Below the pieces are notes generated by a model that saw nothing but the letters and a program-made list of their open reading frames with translations, did not search any database and was not told the DNA's origin. Shown one piece after another: positions 7,340-49,800 of a DNA stretch of 56,445 nucleotides. The DNA lies in the NCBI GenBank assembly GCA_001724265.1, contig MEDY01000178.1, positions 1 through 56,445 of the forward strand. Direction: 5' to 3'. The stretch comes from Rhizaria sp. SCN 62-66 (Eukaryota). Both the position numbers and the translations under genes were made by a program. How positions within the stretch are numbered: the stretch's first letter is position 1; each line of letters opens with the position of its first letter.

Positions 7340-10300
7340 TTAAATGTCCATATCCATCTCCATATCATCGTCACCGTCGTCGTCACCATCATTCGCGCCG
7401 GCCACTGCAGGCGCAGCGGTAGCAGGTGCAGCCACAGCAGGAGTCACAGGGGACGTAGGCTTCTTCACAATAGCAGCAGCGGAAACGGTCGGCTTCGCGA
7501 TACTACTTGAGCTCTTGCCAAAGTCGTCCTCATCATCTTCATCGTCATTGTCATCGATGTCAGAGCTGGAGGTGAGGTTCATTTTGATTGAGTCAGATTC
7601 GTCACCGTCCAAATCACTCTTGTCACCGCCAGCAGCAGCATTCACAGCGCCAGCGCCGGCAGCGGCAGCGGATGCGACAGTATTAGTGTTGGCGTTGTCG
7701 TTTGACTTCGCGTTGGGTGACGCAGCAGTTGTTGCAGACAGAGGCGAGATCGCAGAAACTGGAGAGATCACAGCGCCGCGCGAGGTGTCCGAAAGCGGAG
7801 AGGCAGCGGAAACTGGAGAAGGCGATGACATTGGCGAAATGTCTCCGATGCTCGCAGCGGCATCGTCAGCCTCAGCGTCACTGCCGCTAGCGAGATTGAT
7901 GTCGTCATCATCATCAACGCCGTCATCGTCGCCGTCATCACCGGCAACGGAACTCGCGAGAGCAGCGCTCGCACCCTCGTTCGCACTTGCGGCGGCATTC
8001 GCGGTGGCCTTCGAGCTCGAGCTCGGGCTCGGGCTCGCGACGGCGGCGTCGGTCGCCTTGACGCTGGTACTTGGACTGGCTGTCAACGCGGCAGAGCCCG
8101 TCTTGGTCTTCGAGCTGGGACTCGCGAGGACGGAGTCAGCCTTGGGTTTCGGGGTCGCACTCGGGCCCGCGGCGACATCCACTGCGAGCTTCGACTCCGC
8201 AGCCTTCGGACTGGCAGCAGCAGCGACAGGCTTAGGGGTCGCGGCACCCTCGGAGGTGTCGGGGGTCGACGGGGTCGCTGCCGTTGCGGCGGGCCGAGGG
8301 CTGCCGGCCTTCGGGCTCGTGGCGGCCACAGTAGCCGTCGCTTCCGTCTTGGGGCTACCAGCAACGGGAGCGGCTGCGGGCTTAGGACTAGCAGGGGCAG
8401 GCGTCTTTGCAGCGCCCTTGTCATCCTCCGCGGCGTCTGTGGCGTTGACAGCGTCATCGTCGTCGTCGCTGCTGCTCGCAAACAGGCCGCGGCTGTTGTC
8501 ACTGTCACTGAGGTCGACGTCGTCCTCATCCTCGTCTTCATCCTTGTCAGCCTTAGCCTTTGCATCAGCCTCACCCTTGGCCTTAGCCTTCGCCTCAGAT
8601 TCAGCCTTGGCCTTCGCCTTTGCTTCCGCATCGGCCTTGGTCTTGCTTTCTGCTTCAGCTGCAGCCTTCGCATCCGCGTCAGCCTTTGCTTTAGCGTCAG
8701 CATCTGCTTTAGCCTTAGTCTTGGCCGCAGCCTCAGACTCAGCCTCCGCAGCAGCCTTCGCCTCGGCCTCAGCAGCAGCCTTTGCCTTAGCCTGGACCTC
8801 AGCTTCGGCGTCTGCAGCGGCCTTGGCATCAGCTTCAGCCTTTGCATTGGCCTCGGCATCTGCCTCCGCTTTGGCTTGAGCATCTGCCTCCGCCTTGGCG
8901 ATCGCCTCAGCAGCGGCAGCAGCCTCGGCAGCGGCAGCAGCCTCGGCAGTAGCAGCCTCTGCCTCAGCCTTGGCTTTGGAATTAGCTTCAGCATCAGCCT
9001 TGATCTTGGCATCAGCAGCAGCCTCATCCTCAGCAGCAGTCTGAGCGGCATAAGCTTCCTCAGCAGTATCAGACGCCGCCTCAGCCACCGGCTTAGCATC
9101 GGCATCAGCATCTGCCTCAAGCTCGGCAAGCAGCACTCTCTTGGTGCTCTCGGCGGCGGCGTCGTCAGCATTCTCAGCCTGAGCACCGACCGCGCTATCA
9201 TCATCATCAACTTCGTTGTTGTCAGTGGCGTCCAGCGCGTCAGCGTTGTTGTCATCGTCACCGTTGTCGCCAGCAATGTTGCCGCGAGTGCCGCCGTTGT
9301 TGCGCCGCGAGGCCGCAGTCACCAGCGGCGGCGACATCGGCGCCGGCACCTTGGCCACGCTCTGCTGCACCTGCAGGTGCAGCTGCGCCTCCTGCTGCTG
9401 CTGCGCCGCCAGCGCTGCGGCGCGCTGCCGCTCCCGCTCCTCGCGTTCCTCACGCCGCTCGCGCCGCTTGCGGGCCTCGTCCTCGAGGCGGGCCGCGGTC
9501 TCCGCGCTCGCCGCCTGCGTCTCGTCGAGCGCATCCTGGGGGTGTGAATCAGTGATGAGAAAGCAAAGGGAAACATAGGGGATGAGTTGAACAGGACGAT
9601 ATAGAAGAGGATCGAAGCAGCATGATGAAAAATACAGTTACCACACAAAGAAATACGAGTCAATACAAGTTAATAACTACATTTCATAGAAACATGTTTC
9701 AAAGCCGTTACAGTAATATGATATTGACGCACCTCTTCGTTTCCGGTGGACACATCAAGTCCCAGCGCCTTCGAGGTTTGCACCCGGCTGACCACAGCGC
9801 CGAACACGGCGCTGCCGCCCGCCGCAGAGCCCGCGCCCGCGCCCGTGCCCGCAGCGCCGGTGGCGTTGGCGAACCCGCTCTTGCTGTTGGAGCTGCCGGT
9901 GAGGCTCGCGTTGCTGTTGCTGGTGGCGAGCGCGCGGCGGCTCGACCCGGGCGGGCTCCCCGTCACGGTCACGCTCTCACCGTCGTCACCAGCCGCCGCG
10001 CCCGCGCCGCCGCCGCCGCCGCTGGGGTTCGCGGCCGACTGCGGCGCCGTGAAGGGCTTGTACTCGCGCTCATAGACCGACAGCACGTTGTTTCCGCGCA
10101 GATTGCCAAGAGACGACAGACGGCCCCACTCTACAGCAGCCGCGGCGTCGAAGGCCGGCGACTGGGAGCCCGCGTTCGCGCCCGCGCCGTTGCCGTTGCC
10201 ATTGCTATTGTTGCTGTTGTGGAGGTGCGTGTGCTGCGCGAGCCGCGGCTGGTACATCGACGTGGCCTTGACCAGCGCGGGGTCGTGCGCCACCGCCTTG

Positions 10301-11737
10301 TAGCCGCCGTTGAACAGGGACATGCTCGCGGGGCCGCCGGCGCCCGCCGTCGCGGCGCCACTGCCGTTGCGCTTGTGGATCCCGCCCGCGCCACTGGCGC
10401 CGCCCGCCGCCGCTGTGGTGTTGGAGGGGAACCGCGAGCGCAGGCCAGGGCGCGGGGACGACTTGTTGCCGCCGCTGCCGCCGCCGGGGTTGAGGGAGGC
10501 CGCGTCTCTGAAGCCGTCGATCGCCGTCGCGGCCAGCGCCACGACAGAGCGGCGGCGCACGCTGCCGGCGCTGTCGCCGGCCGCGTTGTCGTTAGCGTTG
10601 GCGCTGCTGCTGCCGCTGTTGTTGTTAGCGCTGCTGCTAGAGTTAATCGCGGGCGTGCTGGCGGTGTTGTCGGACGAAAGCGCACTGCTGCTGTTGCTGC
10701 TGTTGTTGCTGCCGGCGCCACCGTAGCTGGCATTATTGCCGCCGACCAGCCCCAGCATCTCGTAGTACAGGTACCCAGCCTCGGCCGCCGCCTCGGCCGC
10801 CGCCGCGCGCGCTGCTGCAGCTGCCGCGGCCGCCCGCGCGGCAGCGACGGCTGGCGCCTTGGCCTTGGCCTCGGCCTCCGCCGCAGCCGCCGCGGCAGCC
10901 TTCTTCTTCTTGGGGCCCGACTTTTTCGGTCCCGGCGACGCCGACCCCGACCCCGCCGACACCGACGCCGCGCCCGCGGCCGCGAAGCCGTCGCCGTGGT
11001 CGCGGCTGAGCACGGCCGCGGTGGTGGCGGCGAGCAACACAGCGGCGGCGTTCGTGGTGGGCACAAGCACAGGCGCCGTCACCGCCGCGCGCGCCTTCGC
11101 CGCGGCCTCGGCCTCGGCGGCCTCCGCGGCGGCCACGGCGGCCCAGGCGAGGCGGCGCGCGCGAGCTGCCTCGCTGGCGGCGGCGGCGAGCGCAGCCGTG
11201 TCCACCGTGGCCTCTTCGAGCGCTGAGAGCGACTGCGCGTTGCTAGACCCCGAGCCAGAGCCAGAGCCAGAACCAGAGCTAGAGCCAGTCGAGCTAGAGC
11301 TCGAGCCTGAGGAAGATGAGGATGCGGAGATCCCGCGGTTCGCGAGCCAGGCGGAGGCCGAGTCGAGCGTCGCCGCGGCGTCGGTATGCAGCCGCGTGAG
11401 GATGAAGTCGCGGTCCGCGGCCAGCAGCGCGAGGCAGCGCAGGCGGCGCTCGGCCAGGTCGGGGAACTGCTGCAGCTGCGGCGTGGGGACCGAGGCCAGC
11501 GCGGTGATGCTCAGCCGACTGGACGACGCAGTTGCGCTCGCATTCGCACTAGCGCTGAAACTGCTGCTGTTGTTCAGAGGCGGGAGCAGCATCGAGCCGC
11601 TGCCCACAGTGCTGCCGGCGTTGAGAGCGCCCGCACCCGCGCTGGTTGAGGTCGCAGTCGTCGTGGTGGAGAGGAGCGAGAAGATGTCGGGGTACTGGTT
11701 GTGCTCGCAGTCATTGACACCAGAGACACTTACATTC

Positions 11738-11778
<41 letters not shown>

Positions 11779-14700
11779 TTGCTCCCAGTGAGGCTGCTTA
11801 CGGGCAGACGCAGAGTTGACAGCAGCCGAATTGACGCTCGTGTTGCTGCTGCTCGGCGCAGCGGCGGCTTCAGTAGCTGCTGTTGCCGCGGCAGCGGCTG
11901 CAGCGGCGGCGGCGACCTCGGCGAGCCTTGCCTCGACCAACTTGCGGCGCTGCACGTGCCTCAACTCGAGCGGGGAGCCGACGTAGCTTGCATCATTAGA
12001 GCCAGCGTTAGAGCTAAAGCTAGAGCTAGAGCTCAATGACTGCAACTGAGACTGCGCCTGGGCCAGGGAAAGCAGCGACTGCGAGCTAGTCAGAGAGCGC
12101 TTAGATCCGGAGGCGCTGAGCGTGTAGTTGCCCAACGGCAACCCACTTACATTGCCGGCGTTGCCGCTGTGTAAGTAGGCGGCCGAAGCAGACGCCTTAA
12201 GCAGCTGCTGCTGCTGTTGCTGCTGCCTCTGGCTAAACTGTCCCTGCGCAAGCTGCTGCTCTTGCTCTTGCAACTGAGGCTGGGGAGGCTTCGGCTTGAG
12301 CTTGCTCCCGCCGCCCGCGCCGCCGCTGCCAGCGCTGTTGATACTGCCGCTGCCGCTGCCAGAGCCCGCGCCCGCGGCGGTGCTAGCCGGGGGCAGCGGG
12401 GCGAGGCGCGCGGCGGCGGCGAGGTCGAGCCGAGCGCGCTCGGCTAGCGCGGCCATCTGCGCCAACAGCTCGCAGGGGTCCGCGCCGAACAGCGCGTTGT
12501 GCTGCGGCGGCGACTGCGCCGGCTGCGGCTGCTGCTGCTGGGTGGTGTTGCTGTTGTTGTTACTGCCCGCGTTAGCAGTGGCGGTGGCGGCGGCAGCGGC
12601 GGCGGAGATGCGGGCAAACACATCGCTCACACTCACGTTGCCGGTCTCAGCATTAGCACGCGTGTTTGCGCTAGCGTTCGCATTGGTGGTGTTGTTGTTG
12701 CTGTTATTGTTATTGCTGTCGCCGAAGCTGGAGCTGGCGGCAGCGGAGGCGGCGGCGGCGACGGCCGCGATGTCATCGAGGGAGACAGGCACCGGCGCCG
12801 CGGTCCACGACGGCAGACGCCAGTCGTCCTGCTGCTGCAACTGCGCAGAGCCCGTTTGCTGCTGTTGCTGCTGCTCAGTGGCGGCACTCTGCATGGGCTT
12901 CGCAGTCGCGGCGCCGGCGTTCGGCGGGGTTGCGAAGCTGGCCGTCTTAATCTTGCCATGCGCAGAGCTACTGCTGCTGCTAGAGCTCGAGCTGTTGTTC
13001 GCGCCATAAGCGTTGTTGTTTGAGAGGTACTGCGCGGCAAAGATGGCGGCCCACTGCAGCTCCCACACCTTGGCCTCGCCGCCGACCCAGTCGTCGAGCC
13101 ACTCGCTCCCACTGCTAGCGTTCGGAGCACTCGCCGCGCTCTCGCTGGGGGCGCTCGCCGCGGTCACGCCGCTAGAGGAGCTGCCCGCGTTCGGATTTGC
13201 CTGAGTGTTAGCATGAGCGTTTGCATTAGTGTTTGCACTGGCAGTGTTGTTGGCAGTCTCGGCGTCAACCTCGGCCTGAGGCTCGGCAGCCACGTCAGTC
13301 TCAGCGTCACTCTGCTGTTGCTGTTGTTGCTGCTGCTTTTGTTGCGGCTAAGGCTGCTGCTTTGCCGGGGACGGCGGCAACAGCGGGCACGGAACTGCGT
13401 TGGTCGCGTTGACGGCCAGAGCGGGCTGCAGCAGCGCCTGGTAGTACGACAACGACGACAACTGACCCTGTTGGCCCTGCGACTGCTGCTGCTGCTGCTG
13501 AGCGTTGGTGATTGCACTCGCACTAGACGCGTTAGCGTTGTGGTTGTTGTTGTTGCTTTGCTGGAACTCTTGCCAGCGCTGCAGAGCGCGAGCAGTGCTC
13601 AAGACGCCTACTGCGGCGTTACTAGCATTCGCACTCGCACTGTTGTCGCCTGAACCAGTCACTGACTGCTGCTGCTGCTGCTGCTGCTGCTGGTTGTGGT
13701 TGTTACTGCTGTTGCTGTTGTTGCCGCTGTTTGTGCTCGTGCTGCTCGCCGTGGTGATGACGGCCGCCGCGGCCAGGAGCGCGACCCGTTTCAGCACCGC
13801 GTCCAAAGTTAAGCCGTCGCCCTGCTCACAGTCGCCGCCCTGCTGTCCACAGTCATCGGTGCTAGAGCTAGAGCGGTTGTCGCCATCAACTTTTCCGCTG
13901 CCCTTGGCCGCGCTGCCGTTGGTCGGGGGCGGCGGCGGGGGCAGTGGACACAGAGAGAGCTGCAGTTGCTGCTGCTGTCCGCGCTGCTGCTGCTGTGCGG
14001 TGGAGCTGGTGCCGTTGCGCTGCAGCTGCGGCTGCGCGTGGAGATTCGCCTGCGAGCCGAAGCTGCGGCTCAGGCTCATATCGCCAGCATTGCCATTGCC
14101 ATCGCCGTTGCCGTCGCCGTCGTCGGTGTCGGCGTGGGTCGCGGCGTAGACGTCGTTGCCTTCGCCGTTGTCGCTGTCATCGCCGTCGCCAACATTCGCA
14201 CTCCTTTGCTGCTGTTTACTGGCCTGGCCGGCGTCATGCGTGTTGGCGGTAGGGTGCGAAGCCAAGGGCACACCCATTTTATCGGTCCTGGTGCGCGAGC
14301 GTGTCTCTTTCTTCTGCGCGCGCGTCACCATCACGTTCTCGTAGCCCAGCACGGCCGCCTTACGGGGCACAATGAAGCCTACAAAGACGGAACATCGCAA
14401 AAATGGCCAAGAGCATGAATATCATAAAAGAGCGGAGGCGTGAGTTATGAATCCACAAGCATCATATACAGAGGTATTAAATACAAACATGATATGAACG
14501 ATAAACACAGTATTGCATGTTTCGCGAGCTCTTACGAGTTATGTTCAACTTGACGTGTTTTGCTCAGACTTTGCAACGTACCTGGGATGGCGCCCGCGCG
14601 CGCCGAGTCGGCGGCCGCCAGCAGGGCCAGCGCGCTCGCGCCGCTGCCGCCGGAGCCGCCAGAGCCCGCGCTCGCGGTGGCGCCGACGTTCGCGCCGCCC

Positions 14701-14902
14701 TGGGGGCCGTGACCGTGGCTGTGGCCGTAGAGCGTCGCGGTCGATGGCGACATAGCGAGTTTGGCGCTCGAGATCGAGCTCGTCAGCGGGTGGTAAAACC
14801 GCGGGTCCTCCGGGTGCGTAACTCGGTTGTCGAAGTTCCACTCAGACGCCGCGCCTGCGCCCGCCGCGCTAGGGCCAGAGCCGCTGCTGACAGTGGCGCC
14901 GG

Positions 14903-14939
<37 letters not shown>

Positions 14940-15251
14940 GATGGAGGCACCGCGGCGCGGGGGCGGGGGTCCGGCCGAGACAGGCACGGACGGCGCGAGA
15001 TAGAGGTGCAGCGCGGCGGTGGAGGCGGAAGACGCGGAGCCGTCGTTGTAGTGCGCGCGCGTCGCCCCCGCAGCGCCGCCGCCGCCGCTGCTGGTGCCGG
15101 CGGGCTGGGAGAGCGGCGGCAGGAACGCCGGCGGCGGATGCTGCGGGCGCAGGTGCGAGGCCGAGGCGCCCGCGGGGGGCTGCGGGCGACCCGGGGGGCT
15201 GTTGTCGCGGCGCAGCTTGAGCTTGGGGCCCTTGCCGGAGGAGATGATCAT
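7340..15251 (-). CDS. Very large low-complexity protein of unknown function (~2503 aa, 3 exons) containing one in-frame TAG
   Basis: Exons 15251-14582, 14378-9733, 9535-7340 with GTACGT..TAG (phase 1) and GTGCGT..CAG (phase 0) introns. Exon 2 stays in frame end to end across a single TAG at 13350-13348. The model joins four ORF-track entries. Stop TAA. Confidence 0.7.
8545..9030 (-). repeat. Coding Ala/Lys/Glu/Asp-rich repeat (AKAEA/AKADA units), predicted long alpha helix
   Basis: Translation ...ADAKIKADAEANSKAKAEAEAA...AKAEADAQAKAEADAEANAKAEADAKAAADAEAEVQAKAKAAAEAEAKAAAEAESEAAAKTKAKADADAKAKADADAK... Confidence 0.8.
13348..13350 (-). other. In-frame TAG codon inside an exon (candidate sense codon)
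   Basis: AAG CAG CAG CCT TAG CCG CAA CAA AAG CAG = KQQP*PQQKQ. ORFs 13348..14400 and 9670..13293 share the same frame. Confidence 0.75.
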
Positions 15252-15787
15252 GCGCAGAACGGGACTTGAAGCGCGGCGGGTGCGGGATGCGGCGGGAAAG
15301 GGCGGGGAGACGGGCCGCTGGGGATAGTGTTGCTGCGAGTAGAAAACAAGGGCTACAGCTGCAGGAAAACCGTCACTGCAAAAGAAAAGAATTGTTTCAA
15401 ATAATTCAAAACACGATTGTAAGAATACCGCCATTAACATTTAAACAGAGATTTGATGAACGAGATAATCTTATTCTCGGGATGATGGCCAGGTGCACAA
15501 GACGACCGTTATTTTTCTCGGCCGACCTCCAGACCACCGCCTCAGTCGCGAGGCTTAAGTTGTACAGACTCTCATGCCTTATATTGACCGATAATGTTGC
15601 ATTTGCAACAACTGCGCAAAAGAAGGATGCAAAATATCATATATAATTTTTACTCATACCGACCGTGCTCGCCTTTCCTTGTCAACTCTTCCTTGCAGTC
15701 TTTCTCTCGCCACACGCTCGTCCCCCATCAGCCCTGTCCCCGCGCCCGCTCAGTGCCCGCTTCCCCGCACGCGCGCCCGCCCGCTCC
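15252..15787. promoter_or_regulatory. Short divergent (head-to-head) intergenic region, probable bidirectional promoter
   Basis: Only 536 bp separate two oppositely oriented start codons. The core is AT-rich, with acceptor-like YAG tracts on each side. Confidence 0.45.
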
Positions 15788-18499
15788 ATGTCTTCCTCAT
15801 CTACGAGCGGCCCTTCCGTGCGTGCGCTGATTGTGCTGGACCCGAGCACGCAGGCCTCGGCCGTGCTGCGCGTCTACCCCCCGTCCGCCACCTTCAACCC
15901 AGCCTCGAGCAGCACCAGCAACATCAACGCCAGCGCCGCGGGCGCCAACGGCAATGCGCTTGTGCCCGTCTCGGGCGCCGGCGCGGCGGCGGGCGGCGGC
16001 GGCAGCCCCGGCGGCGCGGGCGCAGGCCTGCTCGCCTCCGTGCCCTCCAAGGCAACCAACGCTTCCGCGGCCGCCGGCTCCGGCTCCAGTCTGCGCCGCC
16101 CCAGCTCGGGCTACGACCCGAACGCCGGCGCTGGCGGCTCCGGCGCGGGCGGGGGCGGGGGCGTGCAGTCGCTGTCATCGCTGTACCAGGCGCAGGCGCA
16201 GTGGGAGGCCACCGTGCGCGCATCACGGTTCACCAACAGCGCTAACAACAGCAACAGCTCTAGCAACGGCAACCATGGCACCACGAGTTCAAGCCCTGTC
16301 GGCCCGAACAGCGGCAATGGCGCTGTCGGAAGGCTCACTGCGTATCCCAACGTCCAGCCCCCGACTGCCGCGATGAATCCAACAAACGCAACCAACGGTG
16401 GCGGCGGCGGCGGCGGCGGCGGGGCGGTTGCAACTGTGACGGCCTCATCTGCCGCAGCTGTCGCGGCCGCTGCGAACAACGTCTACCGGGCCGACGCGGC
16501 TGCTCTTGCACACGCGTACGGCATCGACACCGCCTCCGCCACACAGCAACAACAGCTGCAGCTGGCCTATGACAACAACAACAGCAGCAGCAGCGGTGGC
16601 AGCATTGACCCTACCGAGAGCAGCAGCAGCCACGCTAGCGACGGTCCCGACGACTTGCGCGCGCTGCTGCAGTCCGAGAAGCTCTCCTACCAGCGCTCGC
16701 GCGTACAGGCGGCCTCTGCCTCGCTGTCCGCGGCCGAGGCATCGCTGACGGCGCGCCGCGTGGCGCTCGCCAGGGCTGAGGCCGCGGCCGCGGACGCGGC
16801 GGCGCGCGCGCAGGCCGACGCCGAGGCCGCGGCGGAGCGCGCTCGGCTCGGCGCCGAGGGGCCTGTCGCCGTCATCGTCGACCGCAGGCGGCCTAACTTC
16901 GGGCACGGCGGCGCGGCGCACGGCCACGGGCACGGGTACTACGGGCCTCAAGCAGCTGTCGGCCCGGCCGGTCAAAGTAACGGCTATGACCTGAATAGCG
17001 GTTACTACAACTACAACAACAGCAGCAGTAGTAACGCTCCTCAGTACTATAACAACCCCGACTACGCGGCTAACAGCTACCAGAGCGGGGACCACCGGTA
17101 CTTCACTAGTGGTAGTCACGGCGGCCACAGCGACTACGTTGCGGCCGCGCTTGTGGCGAGCCAGGGCGGCATGGGCACTTACACCGTCAGCCCCTTACAT
17201 CCCTTGAACGACCCCTTACAGGCCGCGAACCGCACGTACACGCTCGGCGCTGCGCCCCCACTTACATCTGCGCCAACCACTTACCCTGGCACTGGCGCGA
17301 ACTACGGCAACAACAACGCCAACAGCGCTGCCTCTAGCTCTAGCTCTAACTCGAGTCACATCAGTGGCAGCAACGCCAGTGCCAGCGCCGCGGCCGCCGC
17401 ACTGCCTCTGCCGCGGCCGCTGCAGCTGTCGGCGCTGTCCTCTGCCTTCGCGGCGACGCAGGAGGCGGTGATTCTCGCCGACGCCGCCGCGCCACCCGCG
17501 CTGCGCGCCACGGGCCACGCACGCGCCGCCCCGACCGCGGCCGCCTACGCCTCCGCCAGCCACCACAGCCTCGTCCCCGCCGGCGCCAGCGCCAGCGCCA
17601 GCGCCAGCGCCAGCGCCAGCGCCAGCGCCAGTGGCAGCGCAGGTGCCAATAGCAATGGCAGCAGCAGCAGCAGCGGCAACGGCAACGGCGCTGTTATGGT
17701 AGGGAACGGCAACGGCGGCAGCTTAGTCGCGAGTGCGAGCGCGAGTGCGTTATCAGGCTCTAGCTCTGGCTCTGGCTCTAATCTCGGCTCTGTGGTCGCC
17801 GCGACCGGCGCTGGCGCTGGCGCTGGCAATAGCGTCAGTGGGCCGATGCAGTGGCAGTGGCAGGGGCGCGGGCAACAGAGCTTCACCAGCGTTAACAACG
17901 GAGCTACTTACACCGGTGTAAGTAGTCCTGGAATGTACTCTGCTGCCCCTGTCCCTGCGAGCAGCAACGCCAGCAGTGATTTCTACTGGCTGCAATCGCA
18001 GACTCAACCTCAGCTGCATTCGCATTCGCAGCTCCAAGTCCAGTCGCACCCACAGGGCTCTGGCGATGTCTACTCGCAAAACACGTACAGTAACAACGGC
18101 CACGGCAGCGGCAACGGCAACGGCGGCGCTTACCCTGTCAGCGGCACCGATTACAGTGTGGGGAACAAGGCCTACGGCTCCGGCTACGCTGTCAATGGCA
18201 ACGGCAACTACACTGGCGGCGATAGCTCTATGGGTGTTTATAATAGCGCCAACAGCTTCGGAGGCTATAATCATTACCCGCAGCAGCAGCAACAGCAACA
18301 ACAACAGCAGCAGCAGTATTACGCCAACAGCAGCAATGGCTATGGCGGCAGTACTGGCGGCTACGGCTCTCACCCCACCAGCTACGGCAACTACACCAGC
18401 GGTGCTGGCTATGGCGCCGGTAGCAACGCCGGCTACGGCAGCGGGGGCTCGGTCACTGCCGCCGCTGGGGGCCGCGTTGTCGGCCTGCGCTACCATTAA
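15788..18499 (+). CDS. Intronless low-complexity protein (~903 aa) with a short central coiled coil and a Gly/Tyr/Asn/Ser/Gln-rich prion-like C-terminus
   Basis: Long ORF with first ATG at 15788 (MSSSSTSGPSVRALIVLDP) and GC-rich coding-like codon usage. Stop TAA. No recognisable catalytic motif. Confidence 0.75.
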   Translation: MSSSSTSGPSVRALIVLDPSTQASAVLRVYPPSATFNPASSSTSNINASAAGANGNALVPVSGAGAAAGGGGSPGGAGAGLLASVPSKATNASAAAGSGSSLRRPSSGYDPNAGAGGSGAGGGGGVQSLSSLYQAQAQWEATVRASRFTNSANNSNSSSNGNHGTTSSSPVGPNSGNGAVGRLTAYPNVQPPTAAMNPTNATNGGGGGGGGGAVATVTASSAAAVAAAANNVYRADAAALAHAYGIDTASATQQQQLQLAYDNNNSSSSGGSIDPTESSSSHASDGPDDLRALLQSEKLSYQRSRVQAASASLSAAEASLTARRVALARAEAAAADAAARAQADAEAAAERARLGAEGPVAVIVDRRRPNFGHGGAAHGHGHGYYGPQAAVGPAGQSNGYDLNSGYYNYNNSSSSNAPQYYNNPDYAANSYQSGDHRYFTSGSHGGHSDYVAAALVASQGGMGTYTVSPLHPLNDPLQAANRTYTLGAAPPLTSAPTTYPGTGANYGNNNANSAASSSSSNSSHISGSNASASAAAAALPLPRPLQLSALSSAFAATQEAVILADAAAPPALRATGHARAAPTAAAYASASHHSLVPAGASASASASASASASASGSAGANSNGSSSSSGNGNGAVMVGNGNGGSLVASASASALSGSSSGSGSNLGSVVAATGAGAGAGNSVSGPMQWQWQGRGQQSFTSVNNGATYTGVSSPGMYSAAPVPASSNASSDFYWLQSQTQPQLHSHSQLQVQSHPQGSGDVYSQNTYSNNGHGSGNGNGGAYPVSGTDYSVGNKAYGSGYAVNGNGNYTGGDSSMGVYNSANSFGGYNHYPQQQQQQQQQQQQYYANSSNGYGGSTGGYGSHPTSYGNYTSGAGYGAGSNAGYGSGGSVTAAAGGRVVGLRYH
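17585..17632 (+). repeat. (GCCAGC)7-8 hexanucleotide repeat encoding (Ala-Ser)n
   Basis: Seven perfect GCCAGC units followed by GCCAGT. Confidence 0.9.
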
Positions 18500-18963
18500 G
18501 CGCATTGGCGCGCTTTAAAGAACAATATGAGTCAAGCGCTGTTGTCGACATCGTTATCACTTCTACTTTTTAGTTACATAGCTCACGTTTCACCTTTTCA
18601 TGAAAGTAACACAAATCAATACATCAATCAGTTTTGCTAACGTGTTAGTTCTATTTGTGCAATAATTATCAAAATCAATCAGTGTCATATCACACAAACT
18701 ATCTCGCGCAGACGCATCTAAACAATGAATATAAACTCAATCCCTTTCCTTTCGCTGACGCACATCGAGCATGTGCAATCCTTTCTCACGTGCATACATC
18801 TCAACAGATCTCCAATCTATCCATCGATCGATCGATCGAAATAAGACAGAAGTCTGACAGCGACGTGCCCAAGAGGACTGAGTCACGGCCACTGCCTCAC
18901 ACAATCGCTTACTGACAACTGTCTCCCAGTCACCCACTCACTCTTCTGCGGCTCCGCCATGCG

Positions 18964-21141
18964 TCACTCGACGCCGCCGTAAGCTCCGGCAAGGCCGTCG
19001 CAGTCCATCGAGCGCATGCGCCTCTCAGCCAAGTCCCGCGCGCGGCCGGCACGGTAGGCGTCTGCGTCAAAGCCTCCAAAGTAGGGGTGTTTGAGGGCCT
19101 CGTCGGCCGTGATGCGCCGTAGCGGATCCAACGTGAGCATCTGCACCAGCAGGTCCACGCCCTCGGACGGCAACGAGGGCACGAAGTGGCCCAAGGGCTT
19201 GCCTGGTTGGCGAGGCACGAGAGGCGAGAGACGAGAGAGCAAAGGAAACACAATCGTGTGGCATTTAGGTGTTATTGTGGTGAGCAAGTGAGTGATATAC
19301 ATCGCGTTTCTCAACATTGGATCAACATAAACAATCAAAAAATGAGATTACAATTGAATAAAGCGTGGTAGTCAGGTACCTGGGCCGTGCTCAACGATCT
19401 TGATGTAGATGCTCGCCAGCGGCAGCGCCGAAAAGCCGGGCCAGTTAGCCTCGGTGGGCGCGCCGACGATGGAGAAGATCTTCTTCACGACTTCCATCTC
19501 GGTCTGCGCGGCGAATATGATCTCGCGGGAGATGAACTCGGCGAACACGGCCCCCGCGCCCCAGACGTCCGAGGGATACGAGTACTGCTCCGAGCCCAGC
19601 ATGACCTCGGGCGCGCGGTACAGCGCCGTACACCGGCGCGCTGTAATCGGCCGTGCCGACTGCTCCACGGGCCGCGACATGCCGAAGTCGGCGAGCTTGA
19701 GCGTGAACGAGTCGAGGAACAGGAGGCAGTTGGAGGGCTTGAGATCGCGGTGCAGCAGCCCGTTAGCGTGGAGACAGGCCAAGCCGCTCAGCATGTCGTG
19801 CAGAAACAGCTATAGACATACACAGAGAGCATAGAGCGTAGAGGCACACACAGGGGCAGACGCATGCAAAATAGAAAACACACAATGGGGTGTTTTGAAA
19901 TAGAAAATGAGTACATTCAGTGTGTCATTGTTGTCGAGTTTACGGAGTAATGTTGGGCGTTGAACAGAAGCGGTAGCGTAATACGCAAGTAATTGATAAA
20001 ATAATTACGGCAGAAAGAATGATAGATATGCTTTGCGATTCATTCCATTCTCTTACGCCTCGTGGTCACAGGAGCAGACCGTACCTTGCAGTCCGCTTCG
20101 GTGAAGGGGTACTTTTTGATCGCGTCGGTCATGGTGTGGTTCGCGAGCTCAAGCACGATGTTCAGCGACTTGGCGCCAGCGGACCTGGCGGCCTGGCACT
20201 CGACGTCTGTCCGCGGCTGACTCCAGAACGTGTCGAGATACCTACACAGGAACAAAACAGAATATAACAGCGTCACACATGTTAGCCCGTCGATCAAGCA
20301 CGCAATTACTTGTAACCGCAGCACAGCAAAGGGACACACAAAAACCCACACAGCTTGTACAAAGTTACATCGACAAGAAACATCGCAATTTTAGGAGTCT
20401 GCAATGGTACATAACGTTTGCAATGATATAATCGTAGTATGAGACTTACTTGACAATGTTTGGATGGTCCAGCGTTCTGAGGACCGAGATTTCCCTCAAT
20501 GCGTCGTTTTGCGTGCAGTAGTCCATGGCGATGTCGAGTCGCTTGATGGCAACGGAGCGCACGACGTGCGTTGTGCAGTGCGTGCTGATCGCTGAGGACA
20601 CATGGCCGTACGCGCCGCGGCCGATAGGGCTCTCGGCCTCGTACCTGAACTCGCTCACACGTGGCCATTGCCACTGCGCCTGCGCCTGCGCCCGCGCGTG
20701 GAGATGCTGCACCGGGGCCGGGGCCGGGGCCGGGACCGGGGCCGGAGCGGGGGCCGGAGCGGGGGCATGGGCGGGGGTGAAGTCGCGGCTGCCGGCGGCC
20801 GTGGCCGTGACAGCTGTGATCGAAGCGGCGGCGCTCACATCGCAAGCCTCGCCCGAGTCGGCGCTGCCGCTGCTGCTGGGGGGCTGGCCATCGGAGACGC
20901 GGCGGGAGCGCTTAACGCGAGGGTCAGCGGTGCTGTCGTCGTCGTGGGTTTGACCATTGCTGCTGCTGTTGGGCTCTCCCGTGGCAGCGGCGTCGGTGGG
21001 GCGGGAGGACGGAGGGGCGTTCGCGATGTTGTTGCTCTGATGAGAGGCGAGTGCGCTTGTGTCCTCAGTGTTGACTCGCGGGCCATCCAAAGAGTCGCTT
21101 GCGCAATCTGTGGGCAAGGCGCTGGGGGCCGTGCGCTTCAT
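18964..21141 (-). CDS. CDK-like (CMGC group) Ser/Thr protein kinase, ~505 aa, 4 exons
   Basis: Exons 21141-20450, 20241-20085, 19809-19380, 19202-18964, all phase-consistent. Motifs: IGRGAYGHV, VAIKR, ALREISVLRTLDHPNIV, HRDLKPSN, LADFG, YRAPEVMLG, DVWGAG, MLTLDPLRRITADEALKHPYF. Stop TGA. Confidence 0.92.
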
Positions 21142-22168
21142 TTGAGATCAAACAGTCGTGTCAGACGCTGGGGAAGAGGGGCTTGGTGGCTGAAGGAAAG
21201 GGCGGTGTGGAAAAGGAGGATATGAGAGTTGAAGTATCAATTTTCAAGAATATTAATTATAATAAATGCACAAAAGCACGCTGGAAATCTATATTCCCTT
21301 GGGAATCTTTAGTGTCGGGATCTGCGCGAAGTTTAGTATCGTCCAAATGTCGAGAGATGAGCCGACATCTGTTAGGCGACCCATTGGCAAGCGTTTATCC
21401 CAAAGATTGCCACGGGGTTATCATACATACATGTAAGCAATTGTACCAAATTAAACGGATATGCAAAATTAAAAGTCTAGTTATCCGACGCCAAATTGCA
21501 GTTATCTTTCTGTGGCTTTGACATATTGGCCGGATTCGAGGTCTGGCCGAGTCCGTTGTCAGTCATTGTCTTGTGGCGCTCTTGGGGGACTGCCGGGGTG
21601 TAAGCATATATGACTAACACAAAATGTATCGCTATATGTTATACACTCACAGATTGTATGGTAGACGTTTTATATGGTGCTTTACCATAATTATACGCCC
21701 AATTAGCCGTTTTGTGCGATATGCATGTCATGTGTGCAGGGTGTTGGAGGGAATGCTACGAACAAATCGAGGGGATACACACTCAGGATCGAGACCATAA
21801 GAAAAATATTGCAATGTTGTAATGATAAAATAAGTTGTAAACACAATTAATGTGTATCATGCATGTGAAAGGTAAAATATGGCTTGAAGTACCACCAGAT
21901 ATGGGATACTCTTAACTGACTGAACTTGAAAAAATGTAGCGGACTCGACTCTCATTGGTACTAAAAACGCAAAACGATTCATTTAACTCATGAACGACTG
22001 CCAACGTTGCCCAGTCTTTTGTAAGGAGTGGTTTTGGTTGTGTAGCACTTATTAGGCTGTCGCGAACTGTCCACACACGCTCTGACACACCAAGTTGATG
22101 GCGGCGGACATTGCGTTGGGCGACAAGATGCTTCGATGCCGAGCGCAATGCAGCAAATGTCAATGTGA

Positions 22169-25100
22169 TCACTCGTTTTTGGTATTATCAGCACTAGCCC
22201 TGCTTTCGCTGCGGCTGTCATAGTCGCTGTTGCTATAGCTGCAGCTGTAACTGTCACAGCCATCGGAGCCTGTGATCGTGTTGCTGTTGCCCTTCTTACT
22301 GTTTGTGCGAGAGAAACTGCTGCCACAAACACTGCTTCTTTCTGTTGGCGTTGTTTTTACAACTTTTAACGCGACATGGGATGCTGCGGTCGCCATAGCC
22401 GTTCCACCACCACTTGCAGCGCTCGCCAGAGCCGTATCATTGCCAACAGTCGGGGGAGCATCAGCGAGATCATTTGTTGCGCCCTTATGTTGCGCTTTGG
22501 TCAGCTTGTAATGATTAGACTGCGAGCGCAACAGCGAACTGCGCGCAGCGGATTGACTGTGAGATGGTCGGTGACTGTGAGTGACATTGCTGCGTGCGGA
22601 GGGAAGATCTTGAATATCACTGCTTAAGCTGCTACTCGCGCTGCTGAAATCCGCACCAGGCGTGTTTGCACTTGCGTCACTAGTACACAAGGCGAGTTGG
22701 TGATAAATCTTTGCATCATGGGCTGCTCCGATAACTGGAGCAGCAACACCAGCTGCTTTGGAAAGGGAGGCGGCAGTTGCCTTAGTGTGTGCAGATGTTA
22801 CTGGGACAACGCACAGTTGCCTTTCCAGCAAAAAAGGCTTTGCCGCGTTGTTGGTAGTGTTAGCGCCTGTTGCGGCTATGTTTGCATTGCTGGTCTTGTT
22901 AATCGTTGTGCATGCGCGTGCATTTCCACTCGGCGTTTGCGTCCGTGGTTTTACAGCTTCACTCTGGGCTTGCGCTCCCAACTGTGGCTGCATTTTCTGC
23001 TCTTGTTTCTGCTGCGCGACATGCTCACCAATCCAAGGCGTGTTGCGCGGGGGTTGATGCTGTTGGGGCTGCTGATGTTGACGCTTGCTTGACCAGGAGC
23101 GACTTTGACGTAGCGGTAAAATCATGCTGCCCACTTTGTCGTTTTCACTATCTCCAGAGACTGTCTGATTAATGACACCCGTACACTTGTTTGTAACGCC
23201 ATGCCTGCAATCCTAGCTGTTGTCTGCGTCACTGTTGCGAATATAGTTTGGATCAATGCTAGCGGCGCTGCCAGAGTACTGAATACGGCGGTTTGCAGTC
23301 GCCGTGGTGACTCTTGCTGCTGCACCAGTTCTCTCTCTCATGCCAGCCTCCGGTTGCTGTTGAATGGCAGAGCCCGCTTGAATCGGCAATGCAGTGTTAA
23401 GATCAGACGACTGTGAGCCCAACTCGCTGCCGCTGACCAGCAACTGCGAACGCCCGTGGCTCTGTGATAGCGGGCGAGGTGACAGTAACTGGACGGATTC
23501 ATCCCTGTTTTGGTTACTTGCAGCCTCTTCCTGCTCCAGTGTTGCATAATAATACAGCCCAGCTGGCTGCTGCTGGAGTTGAGCTTGCTGCTTGAGCTCA
23601 AACTCAGAGCTTCCGAACGCTGCTTGCCAGTACAGATGGCGGCTCTGCTCTTGCTGCTGCTGTAGCTCAAGTGACGACGGCATTGGTAATGGGCGCAGTA
23701 GCGACGGAGATGTCTCGATAGATGTACCCACATTGTTGCTATTTGCTGTGCTGTTACGAGGCGTCGCGTTAGTAACGATGTTGATCTGTCCCTTGTTGCT
23801 CACAGTCACCGGTAAGCTTAGCATCTTGTCTCCAACACGCGCCCCACCGACATAGCCTTGTTGTCTTTGCGCCTGTGTTGCGTTGGAGAACCCATGGTTG
23901 GCGTGTAAATAGCCCTCGGAGCGCTCCTCTGATAACACGCGCGCTAGCTTACTTGATTGTGGCAGGACGTGCGCACGATGCTGCAACTGAGCGTCCGCAA
24001 ACTGAGACTGCATTGTACACTGATTGACTGGGGTGATTACCAGGGTATTTGCATCAGCTTCAGAATCCGCTGCTGTTGCTGAGGGCATAGTTATACCGTT
24101 CTTACTCACTGTCAACTGCGGGCACAGTCTCTGAATTCTTGGTTCATCACCCTCAGCAGGTTGATGCGTTGCATGAACTTGCTGGAGCGACCGCGACTGC
24201 TGTAGCAGCGGTGCTTTCAGCGACTGCGAACGTGGCGGCAGAAGGCTTTCGTGCTGCAACGGTTGCAGCTGCTTCCTTTGCTGCTGTTTTGGATTTGCTA
24301 AATGCAGCATAACCGACTGGGTTGGTGATGGCGAGTTTGCAGAAACTGACAGCGACGGCGAGGTATGATTATGCTGCGGCAATTTTTGAGAGAGAACATC
24401 ATGAACAGACTGCTGCTGTTGCTCTTTGACTAAATCAAACGACGTGAACAACGGCATCGTCGGCTGGGTCCGTGCAACGAGGGGTGAAGACGCGGTTGAA
24501 CTAAGGCTGCATGCCCGGAGTTGCTGTGGCTGCCACCGAGGCGTGCGACCGACGTTTTGCTTTCGCTGCGCCTCGCTGCTCGCGCTGTCCGGGACAGGAT
24601 GGGGCGTGCACTCGCGGCCTGAGACACTGATAAAGTGACTGTGCGCAGCGGTGTAACCGTGAGCAAGCGGAATTGCAGCGCTTGCTCCACCGGGAGACGC
24701 AAATGCCGGCGCTTGCTGCGTCAGCGGAGACGTAAACAGTGACTCGGATAAGACATCTTCATCATCATTTGTAACGTTGCTACTATCTGCGAGGTTGCCG
24801 TATGTGTAGTAGGTCCTGTTCCTGAGATTATGCTGGCTCTGTCCACCGTCATTCGACTCAAAGTCATTGTTGTTAATGTTGTTGTTGCTCTGCAACAGCA
24901 GACTCTTGTTTCCACCACCGTCAGAGTTGTTACGATCCTCGATAGAACTGTTGCTGCTGTTGTTACTGCCACTGTTCCATACGTCAAAGCAACACGCGCG
25001 CGAGCGGCTCTCGCGCAAACTGCTGGCAGCTAACGCCTTCGCGCCGTTGCTGTTGCCAGTTGTTGAATTCACTGAGCGCGAGCGCTGCGGTTGCACCTGT

Positions 25101-26488
25101 GATTGTTTCTGCAGACTAACCCCACCCCGACTGTCGTCTTGTGTGCTGTCATGGTGGAACAGAACTGCCACAGGAAGCGTTTTGCGCTGTAACCGGGGCG
25201 ACAAGATTAGTCTTTTTGACTGCGGACTTTGTGCGTTGTGCGAGTAGGCGTGTTCACGACTATAAGTGCCAGCGTGGACGCGGCTGGGGCTTGTAAGTGC
25301 GCCGTCGCTGCTGCATGTCGAGATAGAGCTCACGTCGCTGCCGTCACTACTATCGCTATTCTTATCGTGACTACTGTTGCTAGTCGAGCTGCCGGTTGAC
25401 GAGGATTGCAAAAACGGAATAGAGCAGCAGTTGCGGTACATGCGGGATCTCTTCTGCTCACTTGCCCTCGCAACAGACGCAACTGCGGGCAGCCGAGACA
25501 CAGCGTGTCTGCAGCTGTCGGCAGGGCAGGCAGTGCGGGCGTTCGCACCACTACTTGTGCTGCTGCTACGCGCCCCCAAGAGCGCCAGCAACTGCGCTGG
25601 GGACTAAGAGCGCACGTGTAGTTGCTCATGTGCGTGCACAGGCTTAGGCGTATACGGAAGTGCGGTTGCGCCAGCGGCGTCGCTGCCATCTTCGCCGCTT
25701 CGGTACGCAGTCAGTGTGCGCGCAGACACAATGCCCTGGGCAACAACAGGCTCCGCGCTACTCCTGCTGTGCCAAGCGCTATCAGTTACGGTAGCGCCGT
25801 CAAAGCAGCCGCTCGCGTCAATGCCAGGTGCCATCACAGTCTTGTTTGCAACAGCAGCAGCGGCATCCGTGCTCCTGATCTTGCTGCTGTCGTCGCCGCC
25901 GCCGCCGCGGCCGTCGCTGCTGCTGCTCCTGATAATGTCACCGTTATTGTTGACGTCGTTGCTGCAAATTGTGTTGTTCTTAGTGAGCATGTCGAGAAGC
26001 GTTTCATTCTCTTGGTCCCCATCACACTTATGAGCGCTTGATTCGTTGAGTTTCCCAGTCTTGCCGTCGGTCGCTGTTATCACGATGGCAGGCGAGGAGG
26101 GCTGCCACAGCGTGAAACTCGCCGCCTCGCTGTAGGTCTGGGCGGCGTGACTGTGGGCCGGGTGCCAGTAGGGCGGTGGCGGCGGCGACAGAAAAGGACG
26201 GCGGCTGATGCCACTACCGACACCGGTCCTGACGAGAGTGTCTTGGCCGCTATTGATAGCGATACTGTCTGGTCCGTCAGAGTGGCCGCTATCGTCATTG
26301 CTGCTACTGCTGTTCAGCGAGTGGTTGTTACATGGTAACATCGATCCATTTTGCCGCTGCTCGTAGTCGCTCTCCGAGCTGTTGTTTGGCGTAACATCGG
26401 AGAACCGGCGCTGACGCACAGCGTGCGCGTTCGACCTGAGCGACGGGACATGCGCAGCACTCAGCGGGCTGCTGACATCGTTGCCCAT
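22169..26488 (-). CDS. Intronless Ser/Gln/Asn-rich disordered protein (~1439 aa) with a possible N-myristoylation signal and two in-frame TAG codons
   Basis: ORFs 25604..26557, 23213..25591 and 22169..23134 are one reading frame broken only by TAG at 25606-25604 and 23215-23213. ATG at 26488 gives MGNDVSS. Stop TGA. No frameshift and no AT-rich intron. Confidence 0.62.
23213..23215 (-). other. In-frame TAG codon (candidate sense codon)
   Basis: GAC AAC AGC TAG GAT TGC AGG = DNS*DCR. The frame then stays open ~347 codons to TGA. Confidence 0.65.
25604..25606 (-). other. In-frame TAG codon (candidate sense codon)
   Basis: GTG CGC TCT TAG TCC CCA GCG CAG = VRS*SPAQ. The frame then stays open ~796 codons. 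Confidence 0.65.
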
Positions 26489-27289
26489 ACCGCTTGTCTG
26501 TGCGTTACAGCGACTTAGAACGCACTGGAAGCAGCGGAGTCGCCTATAATGTGTCAACAGGATCGCCTGATGACCGAGATCGAGCTATGCAAGGCGATGC
26601 CAAGAGGAATAAGTCGCAGATCGGGCTATCAAGCGGTCAAACCAACAATAAAAGTCGTTACCCACAAGATTTAACCAATGACACACTATTTTAAGAATGT
26701 CGAGCACACGTGAAATGGCTCTTTAAAGGACGCAGTTGTGATATAAAGTCAGTTTGATTCGAGTTCAAGTTGTTGCCATGGCACACAGGTCGAACACAGT
26801 GAAAATAACATTAGCGTTAATTTTGAAAGTATTTCTGAATAGGAATTGACTTTAAAATCTGTTTGCATAACAAAGCAAGCGCAATGACGGAGAATATCAT
26901 GCTCGCTTCAGCCTTGATAATCGCATTAGAACTTGGACCACAACAAAGCTGAGCAACTTGAAGCTAGGTAGGTCAAGGCCACCGCAGTCCACAGTCAAAT
27001 TGTTTTGAAATATTGTGCGCTAATGAGTGTTTGTATTTATAATCGTCGTAAACATTATATATTGAGATCTGAGTATATTATCTTCATTCTCGATCAATTC
27101 ATCCTCTGACACACAACGAGACATGGGAGTGCCCGTAAATATATCAACAGAAGTAAAAATCCACATGTCCCCACTTCTTCAAGTCTTAAAAACACTTTCC
27201 AAGTCCTGAAACAAGCCGAGACCTCCCCACGTCCACCTAAATTTTTCAAGTCAGGTCACAGGTAAACACATACCCGCCTGTTGACTTGC

Positions 27290-29713
<2,424 letters not shown>

Positions 29714-40390: not shown

Positions 40391-40424
<34 letters not shown>

Positions 40425-44825: not shown

Positions 44826-44882
<57 letters not shown>

Positions 44883-46878: not shown

Positions 46879-49800
46879 TCAACCGCGGCGCTTGCCGGCC
46901 ACAGCGGCTTTCTTGCCAGCAGCGGCAGCCTTGGCCTTGCCACTTGACTTGGCCTCAGCCTCAGCATCGTAGTCGGCGTCGGCATCAGAATCGGAGTCGA
47001 GGCTGCCCATGCTGCGGCTGTTGTACACGCTGGCGGCGACGGCGGCGCCCTTGCCGCCCTTGGCGGCGGACGCGGTCTGACTTTTCGCCGGCGAGGCGGC
47101 CTGCTTAACGGGAGTGCGCACGATAACGGGGATGGCGGAGGCGTTGGACTTGGTGCCGCGGCGCGTCTTGAGGGGCGAGATGATCATAGCCTCGCCCTCC
47201 TCCTCGACCTGCTCCACCTCGCTCGCATCATCGTCATCGTCATCCTCGTCATCGTCGTCGTCAGTGTTGTCCTCCTCCTCAGACTCTGAGTCGCTGACGG
47301 CGGCACGCTTAGAGCCCTTGCCCTTAGCCGCAGCAACAGCAGCAGCAGCGCCCTTAGCGGGCGTGCCCTTAGCGGGCGTGCCCTTAGACTTCGCGCTGGT
47401 GGTCGTGGCTGTGAAAAGCGCAGAGAGCTCATCGTCCAGCACAGACGGCTCGTCACTGGGGCCCTCAAAGCCACTGTTGTAGCGGCCAGAACGGGTGGAG
47501 GTACCTGCGACGGACGCGGTCATGTGGGAAATGACGGCGGCAGCGCGCTGCTTGTCCTCTTCTTCGTCGTCATCAACATCATCGTCGTCATCGTCGTCGT
47601 TCTCAGCAGAGTCGTCGGAGTCGTTCATCATAGTTAAGCCGCCCTCATCATCATCATCATCAGCCTCGTCGGCGTCGTCCTCATCCTCGTCCCCGTCGTC
47701 GTCTGAGCCGGCACCGGCGGCGGCGGCAATGGCGCGCGCCATCTCACTCTCGCTGTCGCTCGCCTCCTCATCCTCGTCCTCGTCGTCAGCGTCCTCGTCC
47801 GCGTCCTCCTCGTCCTCGGACTCGGACTCGGACTGGGGGGGCTTGGCCTGAGGGGTGCGCTTGGCCTTGGCGTCCTTGCCGATGAGACCGGCCTGTGGAA
47901 AAACAACAAAAAGCAAGGTGAAATAAACATTGTTAGAAACATCGCTTTACGGATAGTTGCGAGTAAAAAAAACGATACGGTGAAAACAAGCGCCGTTATC
48001 ATAATAGAACATATCGCGGAGATATATCTAAATTTGTAAGGAATCTTGATACGTACATCAGCGCGGTCACCGACAGTGTCCTCGTAAACGTTGGCTCCAG
48101 CATCAGCGCCGTCGTCCTCAGCCTCCTGGCCATCGTCGTCGTCACTGTTGGCAGCGGCGGCGTCGTCGTCGTTTCCATCGTCGTAGGTGCCGCCGACGAC
48201 GTTATCACCGAGATCGTCGACGACAAACCACGCCGACATGGCATCCAGGTCCACCCCGTCGGTCTGCCCGTCGCCGTGACCGTCGCCAGCAACAGCGCCA
48301 GTGAGCCCACCCTCGCCGTTGATGGCGGCCGCAGACTCGGCCGAGAGCGTGAACAGGTCGTGGATCTTCTCCACGCGGTGGCCGCCACTGCCCGCGTCCG
48401 CGTCGGCGTCGGCGTCGGCGTCGTCGGTCGCGGTCGAGAGGCCCGCGAGCTTGAGCATCCTGTCCTCCTCAGAGTCGCCCTTTTGCTGCGTAGTGGCGCT
48501 GGCGTCGCGCGCGGCGCCGGTGGCGGCGGCGGCAAGGTGGGAGAGGGCTGCCGCGCGAGTCTTGACGGCCGCAGCCAGCGCGGCGGGGCCCTCGGTCTCG
48601 ATGCGGCTCACCAGGACCGCCAGGGACCTGTGATGTGGATATGATGCAATGATAGAGAGCAAAGATGACGACGTGAGCAAACAATAACAGTTAGAACAAT
48701 AAGAAAAACAACATGGATATCTGATTGAAATAATGTTAAATCAAATGTCATCAAATATCTCGAGATATATGCGATCTGTTTACTCCGTACCTGGTGCTCA
48801 CGGTCAGGGGCAGGGCGGCCAGCAGAGGGCCGACGGCCTCCGCCGCGGCCGCCGCGGTCGCAGCAGCCGTGCCGGCCTTGGTCACGGCGGCCTCGGCAGC
48901 CGCAGCGGCGGCCGTGGCCGCGGTCACTGCCGCGGCGGGCGCGGCGGCGGGCAGCAGCAGCGAGGCGAAGGTGCTGAACCGGGCGCGCGTGATCGCGGCG
49001 GCGGCGACGGACTCGGCCGTCACGGGGGCCACGGAGGCCGCAGCGGCGCTGCCGCGGCTGGCGCGAGCCGCGGCCGTCGCCGTCGCCGTCAGCGCCTTGG
49101 CGATCGCGGTCGCGGCCAGGGGGGAGACCTACAGAGGGAGCGGTAGTCGAACAAAAATAGTAAAGATTGATACAATGAGGAGATGTACAAAACAAAATAT
49201 GATATGCGTATGTAATAGGACACACAAAACGAAAGGTGGTGCTATTTCATGTGTCAGAGTGCATATACAGTCATAAATTTTCAGTTTCGTGATTCGACTG
49301 ACCTGGAGGAGCAGGGGCCGCGCCATGATGAGCGTGGCCGGCAGCGGCAGCGGCGACGCCCGCGCCGCCAGCGTCCGCAGCACGCTGCCCAGCGTTGCCA
49401 GCGCGACCTTGACGCCCACCACGCCAGAGCCAGCGCTAGACGCAGCGACAGCACTCGAGGCGGCGGCAGTATTGTGCTTGGCGGAGTTGATAGCGGGGGG
49501 CGCGAGGGATGACAGCGAGTCAAACCAGCGCAACACCCTGGCGGCGCGCAGCGCGGCCGTGGCGCTAGCGGTCACGGCGACGCCCGCGGCGGCCGCGGCC
49601 GCGGCGGAGGCGGCGGCCGCGGCGACCGAGGCCGTGGCGCGGTTCAGAGGCCCCGTGGCCAGCAGCGCGGCGAGCACCGGGGGCGCGCGCAACAGCAGCG
49701 CCAGGGACGACTGCGTCAGCGCCACCACCGCGGTCGCGCCGTCGTCGCTGCTGCTGCTCGCCAGCCGCGTCGTGTTGCCGTTGGAGCCAGAAGTGACCGT

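Follow-up and report, generated by a model that had tools for sequence, protein, structure and literature searches.

Contig MEDY01000178.1 of the assembly Rhizaria sp. SCN 62-66 (GCA_001724265.1), analyzed here over its full 56,445 nt (the window), carries three TAG codons inside two long minus-strand reading frames that are otherwise uninterrupted, and the reading that we tentatively prefer is that UAG is decoded as sense in this organism, by a rare and possibly young reassignment or suppression. The three TAGs are real, are common to samples, lie inside frames that are open on both sides, and fall outside introns and gene borders; that they are translated, by which decoder and as which residue, is what we infer. 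We regard UAG recoding here as a credible but unproven candidate, and not yet as evidence of a variant code. An earlier note on the same DNA had proposed such a code, in which UAG is a sense codon while UAA and UGA remain stops. Assembly error, introns, and gene borders fail as explanations of the three codons and none of 12 inferred gene ends is a TAG, which sustains part of that proposal; young nonsense alleles remain a serious rival to the rest.

Three TAG Codons Interrupt Two Otherwise Open Frames

The presence of three lone in-frame TAGs in two long frames, as claimed in the earlier note, was confirmed: the codons occupy positions 13350-13348, 23215-23213 and 25606-25604, all on the minus strand, and the two frames that contain them have no other stop. 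With TAG read through, positions 9670..14421 form a single frame of 1,583 codons and positions 22169..26722 a single frame of 1,517 codons. Of the three stop codons, tested one at a time, TAG alone fused long sense-frame open reading frames (ORFs) when read through; reading through TAA or TGA either lengthened real ends by at most ~120 codons or opened antisense frames that hold many such codons. In DNA of such low complexity, codon-usage log-odds computed at each of the stops failed to tell sense frames from antisense ones.

The first frame belongs to gene A (7340..15440, minus strand), which encodes an orphan low-complexity protein in three exons (exon 1 to 14582, exon 2 from 14378 to 9733, and exon 3 from 9535 to 7340) and terminates in TAA at 7342-7340. 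Both of its introns are in phase: intron 1 (14379..14581, minus strand) has 203 nt, the borders GTACGT...TTGTAG and a GC content of 0.39, and intron 2 (9536..9732, minus strand) has 197 nt, the borders GTGCGT...CCCCAG and a GC content of 0.38. The spliced coding sequence comprises 2,566 codons and is interrupted by one stop only, the TAG at codon 630, which lies in exon 2 (13348..13350, minus strand) in a Gln/Pro-rich context (CAG CAG CCT TAG CCG CAA CAA AAG CAG). GC content at third codon positions (GC3) is 0.77-0.82 in exons 1-2, and the 151 open codons between the TAG and the next in-frame ATG have a GC3 of 0.74; the local GC content at the TAG is 0.64, which is not intron-like.

The second frame is that of gene B (22169..26488, minus strand), a single-exon orphan of 1,439 codons that runs from an ATG at 26488 to a TGA at 22171-22169. 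Two TAGs split it into segments of 294, 796, and 347 codons. The first follows codon 294 (25604..25606, minus strand; context CGC TCT TAG TCC CCA GCG) and the second comes after 796 further codons (23213..23215, minus strand; context AAC AGC TAG GAT TGC AGG); the 347 codons 3′ of the latter contain no in-frame stop.

In all five segments that flank the TAGs, the coding frame has no stop, as against 5-52 stops in each of the other five frames. The same frame resumes directly 3′ of each TAG, with no ATG for 151, 54, and 29 codons, and the GC content 3′ of the three TAGs stays at 0.49-0.67 versus a fall to 0.30-0.55 after the 12 real termini. Genes A and B together, at ~4,000 codons, contain three TAGs, no TAA, no TGA, and no frameshift. 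The further claim that no gene model contains an internal TAA, TGA, or frameshift therefore holds in full for these two genes; in the other genes the exon ORFs are open and some of the introns are in phase. A further in-frame TAG, at 26587, was rejected as a sense codon, as it lies upstream of the gene B ATG at the onset of AT-rich intergenic DNA.

The Same TAGs Occur in Other Samples

Logan contigs assembled from runs of several studies, on bioreactors, wastewater, and activated sludge, also contain the DNA of the window, and a contig of 95 kb that includes this locus exists as well. TAG 13350 is bridged by contigs of runs X2 and X4 and TAG 23215 by contigs of runs X2 and X5, in each case with no change, and TAG 25606 is bridged by an X2 contig spanning 24444-26182 that is unchanged at the site. 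The bridging contigs from other studies do show a few differences from the window away from the TAGs, and none of those in runs X2, X4, and X5 carries an intact, TAG-free allele. Diversity in the samples is low, with few single-nucleotide polymorphisms (SNPs) per several kilobases. Many apparent joints in the contig comparison were disregarded, their sides being 20-27 nt long and located within repeats.

A poly(A) metatranscriptome run, X7, contains contigs on genes A and B, and none among those listed bridges a TAG. One X7 contig (9455-10178) retains intron 2 of gene A with its 197 nt, and another, at 19959-20281, covers intron-like low-GC parts of the kinase gene. Because X7 contigs cover intron sequence, this library carries DNA or unspliced RNA of the organism and is uninformative as to mature mRNA, transcription, or splicing at the TAGs.

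TAG Is Absent from the Inferred Gene Ends

Each of the 12 inferred termini listed in the earlier note was found to carry the codon assigned to it. Six are TAA (183, 6481, 7340, 18499, 27290, 32047), six are TGA (18964, 22169, 32847, 36785, 46879, 51750), and none is TAG. TAG ordinarily makes up 15-30% of stop codons, and with this assumed share the probability of finding no TAG among 12 termini is 0.014-0.14, a value that comes from a small sample. One terminus, that of the enolase, is supported by a homologue that likewise ends in TAA; the other 11 rest on the end of an ORF followed by AT-rich DNA.

One more in-frame TAG, at 49131, was considered and rejected. It forms the last three bases, and hence the 3′ splice site, of an in-frame gene F intron of 174 nt (49129..49302, minus strand) that ends in CTGTAG. 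This intron is free of stops until its terminal TAG, so a stop-to-stop ORF scan shows a 681-codon ORF that seemingly ends in TAG, a trap when stop usage is counted.

As for the decoding machinery, neither ARAGORN nor Rfam detected a tRNA gene in the window, in which no Rfam family was found at all, and eRF1 had no match among the window ORFs scanned.

Genes A and B Are Orphans

Pieces of genes A and B matched no Pfam family, and gene A, represented by 1,000 aa, gave no match in an exhaustive HMMER search. In a protein collection of 5.8 billion clusters, gene B had no match in the range of 791-2,519 aa, so that no uninterrupted form of at least 791 aa is present there; below 791 aa it had three matches, all of them its own fragments from the same species. 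The search of the protein collection for gene A at 860-2,739 aa also returned no match, but its candidate list was saturated by low-complexity words and the result is hence uninformative. When a paralogous copy of the gene A TAG site was sought by a repeat search, the matches were all of low complexity. A 538-aa gene B fragment from another assembly (P0002) mismatches the window in its C-terminal 7 residues, which resemble the translation of a sequencing adapter at the end of a contig.

In composition, gene B stands apart from all the remaining genes of the window: its GC content is 0.52-0.60, its codon log-odds are negative, and it has no intron. Its GC3 declines along the gene from 0.67 to 0.58 to 0.49, versus about 0.8 elsewhere. 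In other runs its depth is that of a single-copy gene, and gene B could be of recent or foreign origin, or else weakly expressed.

Weighing UAG as a Sense Codon against Premature Stops

If UAG is decoded as sense, the ribosome would insert an amino acid at the three UAGs and produce full-length proteins of ~2,565 residues from gene A and 1,439 residues from gene B, with UAA and UGA serving as the terminators. UAG would be read by a cognate tRNA with a CUA anticodon or by an efficient near-cognate tRNA, and its recognition by eRF1 would presumably be weakened. Given the Gln/Pro run around the gene A site, glutamine is a first guess for the residue. The reassignment may be young or inefficient, such that UAG would have been purged from gene ends and would only be starting to reappear within genes. 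As a sense codon UAG would occur 3 times in the ~15,000 codons of our approximate gene models (about 0.02% of codons), and this rarity, together with its confinement to fast-evolving, disordered proteins, fits a young or inefficient state. Stated in its strongest form, the proposal is that a nuclear UAG stop-to-sense reassignment is seen near its beginning, at ~2 UAGs per 10,000 codons, in a GC-rich, intron-bearing, non-ciliate eukaryote of wastewater reactors. We regard this form as possible but rather doubtful; if true, it would amount to a living intermediate on the codon-capture or the ambiguous-intermediate pathway.

Several observations weigh against sense decoding of UAG. There are only three sites, and all of them lie within orphan low-complexity genes (the earlier note likewise placed all three in nonconserved regions); the conserved genes of the window (the enolase, the two kinesin motors, and the CDK-like kinase) contain no TAG. 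A TAG cannot be matched to a residue by alignment, since neither gene A nor gene B has homologues. Three random nonsense hits would all be TAG with a probability of 0.17-0.22, a chance this high because CAG, GAG, AAG, and TCG are common codons here; the TAG share of nonsense opportunities is 73-77% in gene A and 48-53% in gene B. The SNPs in gene B are all nonsynonymous (3/3), including one upstream of its first TAG, and from these SNPs and its atypical codon usage gene B looks weakly constrained, as would suit a dying gene. Finally, known UAG-reassigned lineages use UAG often, so that sense decoding here must further assume a state that is very young or inefficient.

These points bear on the strongest alternative, namely that the code is standard and that the TAGs are young, fixed premature stops in the dispensable, recently knocked-out orphan genes A and B. 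The knock-outs would be so recent that frameshifts and further stops have not had time to accumulate 3′ of the TAGs. Lack of homologues, low complexity, the SNPs and codon usage of gene B, and conserved genes free of TAG all favor premature stops, as does the CAG-rich make-up of these genes, in which no nonsense codon is more readily reached than TAG. In addition, since diversity between samples is low, TAGs common to all samples may mean one young, widespread clone. Set against this, premature stops require two independent knock-outs among ~13 genes in 56 kb, with one of the genes hit twice and no frameshift, TAA, or TGA in ~4,000 codons, and the absence of TAG from all 12 termini would be a coincidence. 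Moreover, both SNPs downstream of the gene A TAG are synonymous (2/2), the exon-intron structure of gene A is intact, and an intact allele was seen neither in the three other runs with bridging contigs nor, for gene B, in the protein collection. We consider premature stops a realistic explanation, though one that we would not on balance expect to prove correct. In arriving at this and the other gradings we took into account the rarity of double young knock-outs, the probability of three hits all being TAG, the absent TAG termini, and a low prior for an early reassignment; the gradings are judgement, not computation, and the two leading hypotheses differ by a factor of a few at most.

Gene-Specific Recoding, Introns, and Assembly Error Account Poorly for the TAGs

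With a standard code, the three UAGs could also be subject to gene-specific recoding, either by programmed readthrough or by RNA editing (for example, U-to-C). The frames are open downstream, so functional genes would need some form of read-through, and the base at +4 of TAG 13350 is a C, which makes for a leaky stop context. Motifs such as UAG-CARYYA provide a stimulatory 3′ context for readthrough; the three sites have no downstream context in common (TAG CCG CAA CAA, TAG GAT TGC AGG, and TAG TCC CCA GCG). We know of no precedent for readthrough extensions of 350-1,900 codons, which also counts against readthrough. No edited form occurs in contigs of RNA-labelled libraries, though these contigs may be DNA, and gene-specific recoding would leave the missing TAG termini unexplained. 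We therefore judge it improbable.

The TAGs might also be untranslated, lying in unrecognized introns or at the borders between separate neighboring genes. With the enolase gene as the model from which the intron features of this organism were learned, seven introns were mapped exactly. They measure 161-221 nt, have a GC content of 0.27-0.41 versus 0.65-0.70 in exons, begin with GTACGT, GTGCGT, GTATGT, or GTCAGT (GTNNGT), and end in YAG. The enolase gene has four introns and kinesin-1 and gene A have two each; gene F has three intron-like low-GC segments, one of which is mapped. CTT precedes two of the three TAGs, resembling a 3′ splice site, and the 12-nt element GTGCGCTCTTAG at 25606 begins like a 5′ splice site of this organism. 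However, a search for in-frame GT..AG introns with the organism's donor motif gave no candidate spanning either gene B TAG, and the candidates at the gene A TAG are only of 357-561 nt with a GC content of 0.6, unlike the real introns. The local GC content at the TAGs is 0.49-0.65. Gene borders fare no better: real intergenic spacers measure about 465 nt or more and are rich in AT, whereas no AT-rich spacer is found at the TAGs and the frame runs on without an ATG for 29-151 codons. Indeed, the downstream segments have no in-frame stop where the other frames have 5-52, so the TAGs are not gene boundaries. Untranslated TAGs are thus very improbable. Assembly or sequencing error is scarcely credible, since independent contigs from other sequencing studies bridge every site unchanged and carry the same three TAGs, with the 294-aa fragment bounded by TAG 25606 found on six contigs and the 318-aa fragment after TAG 23215 on seven.

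Gene Content of the Window

The window is a eukaryotic contig with a GC content of 52-71% and ~13 genes spread over both strands, among them two kinesins, one enolase, and one CDK-like kinase; a multi-exon gene occupies 51.7-56.4 kb. The enolase gene (27290..29450, minus strand) contains four AT-rich introns and ends in TAA at 27290. Its nearest relative in the collections is L001, a 2.1-kb metagenome contig with only an enolase, which is 85% identical over enolase exon 4; a search with this exon found 216 relatives, and among the 80 of these that were kept, all but L001 are at most 69% identical. The enolase carries an N-terminal extension of ~55-60 residues ahead of the Enolase_N domain, which matches no Pfam family and is kept in L001 (L001:275-1789), the pattern shared by the two being LTEEQA..QYLE....EKLNL..NKLAK.RPADP.GFL.DCL. 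The L001 gene is intronless, versus the four introns of the window gene. The window enolase also has a WGW-type insertion, a feature of plant and alveolate enolases.

Kinesin-2 (36785-46244, minus strand) has an N-terminal low-complexity region of ~1,000 residues, rich in Asn, Gln, Ser, and Gly, before its motor domain, and AT-rich introns split the motor near 43098-43304 and 42741-42953. A kinesin profile run against Genome Taxonomy Database (GTDB) contigs to seek other parts of this genome gave four matches, none of them related, and against IMG/VR it gave a single match of 32% identity. Gene D had 74 pattern matches and no relatives in metagenome contigs. The contig L084, from a metagenome-assembled genome labelled Pseudorhodoferax, joins ~9 kb of bacterial DNA with 70-75% GC to an end of ~3.5 kb with 35-45% GC (9000-12574), and this tail encodes a kinesin motor; L084 is probably a chimeric assembly that includes eukaryotic DNA.

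Discussion

Should UAG prove to be sense here, the organism would be a new member of the rare UAG-only kind, GC-rich, non-ciliate, and possibly early-stage. The early phase of a reassignment would then be visible, with UAG gone from termini yet very rare inside genes, and the choice between codon capture and an ambiguous intermediate, as well as the roles of tRNA and eRF1, would become directly testable. Standard annotation would file such rare-usage states as pseudogenes, and they may therefore be under-counted. If the TAGs are nonsense alleles instead, they would represent ordinary gene decay in orphan genes.

To our knowledge, all described UAG-only cases are mature and use UAG frequently. 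In the literature, supplementary files aside, we found no report of a matching organism or of such a code. According to the passages of PMC5304391 drawn on here, the nuclear codes of Iotanema spirale and the rhizarian exLh were the first on record to alter UAG while leaving UAA unaltered, and UAG-only reassignment was inferred there from two signatures, in-frame stops that are UAG only and termini that are exclusively UAA or UGA.

The window resembles a locus with young unitary pseudogenes in that its in-frame stops stand in poorly conserved, apparently dispensable genes and in that the SNPs of gene B are all nonsynonymous. It differs from such a locus in the lack of frameshifts, TAA, and TGA, in the involvement of two genes in one window with the same codon three times, in that an intact allele was not found, and in that none of the 12 gene ends is a TAG either.

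UAG is decoupled from UAA in the Blepharisma code (NCBI table 15). Ciliate genomes are unlike the window in contig layout, GC content, and introns, the window being a 56-kb contig of 52-71% GC with ~13 genes and introns of 161-221 nt. The decoupling of UAG from UAA is the feature that the window shares with the UAG-specific reassignments of ciliates, described, in the parts of these sources used here, for Oligohymenophorea sp. PL0344 (PMC10553269) and for phyllopharyngeans (PMC11687900).

In exLh, a rhizarian of the Sainouroidea in which UAG specifies Leu, 71 genes contain 384 in-frame stops, all of them UAG, and terminate in 56 UAA, 15 UGA, and no UAG (PMC5304391, as excerpted). The window shows the same two signatures, and exLh too is uncultured and was discovered within mixed sequence data. 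The usage differs, in that exLh has ~5 UAGs per gene, including conserved Leu positions, versus about 0.02% of codons here, and nothing in the window points to Leu.

In Iotanema spirale, the nuclear code has UAG as Gln with UAA and UGA as stops; from the same portion of PMC5304391, UAG is common there and occurs at conserved positions, its meaning was assigned from likelihoods across many genes, and the GTS motif of eRF1 is reported to carry the change T32G. The window differs in having three sites in orphan genes of a GC-rich genome. It is like Iotanema in having UAG alone in frame, termini of UAA and UGA, and a non-ciliate host, and the meaning of UAG would be the same in both if the residue inserted here is Gln.

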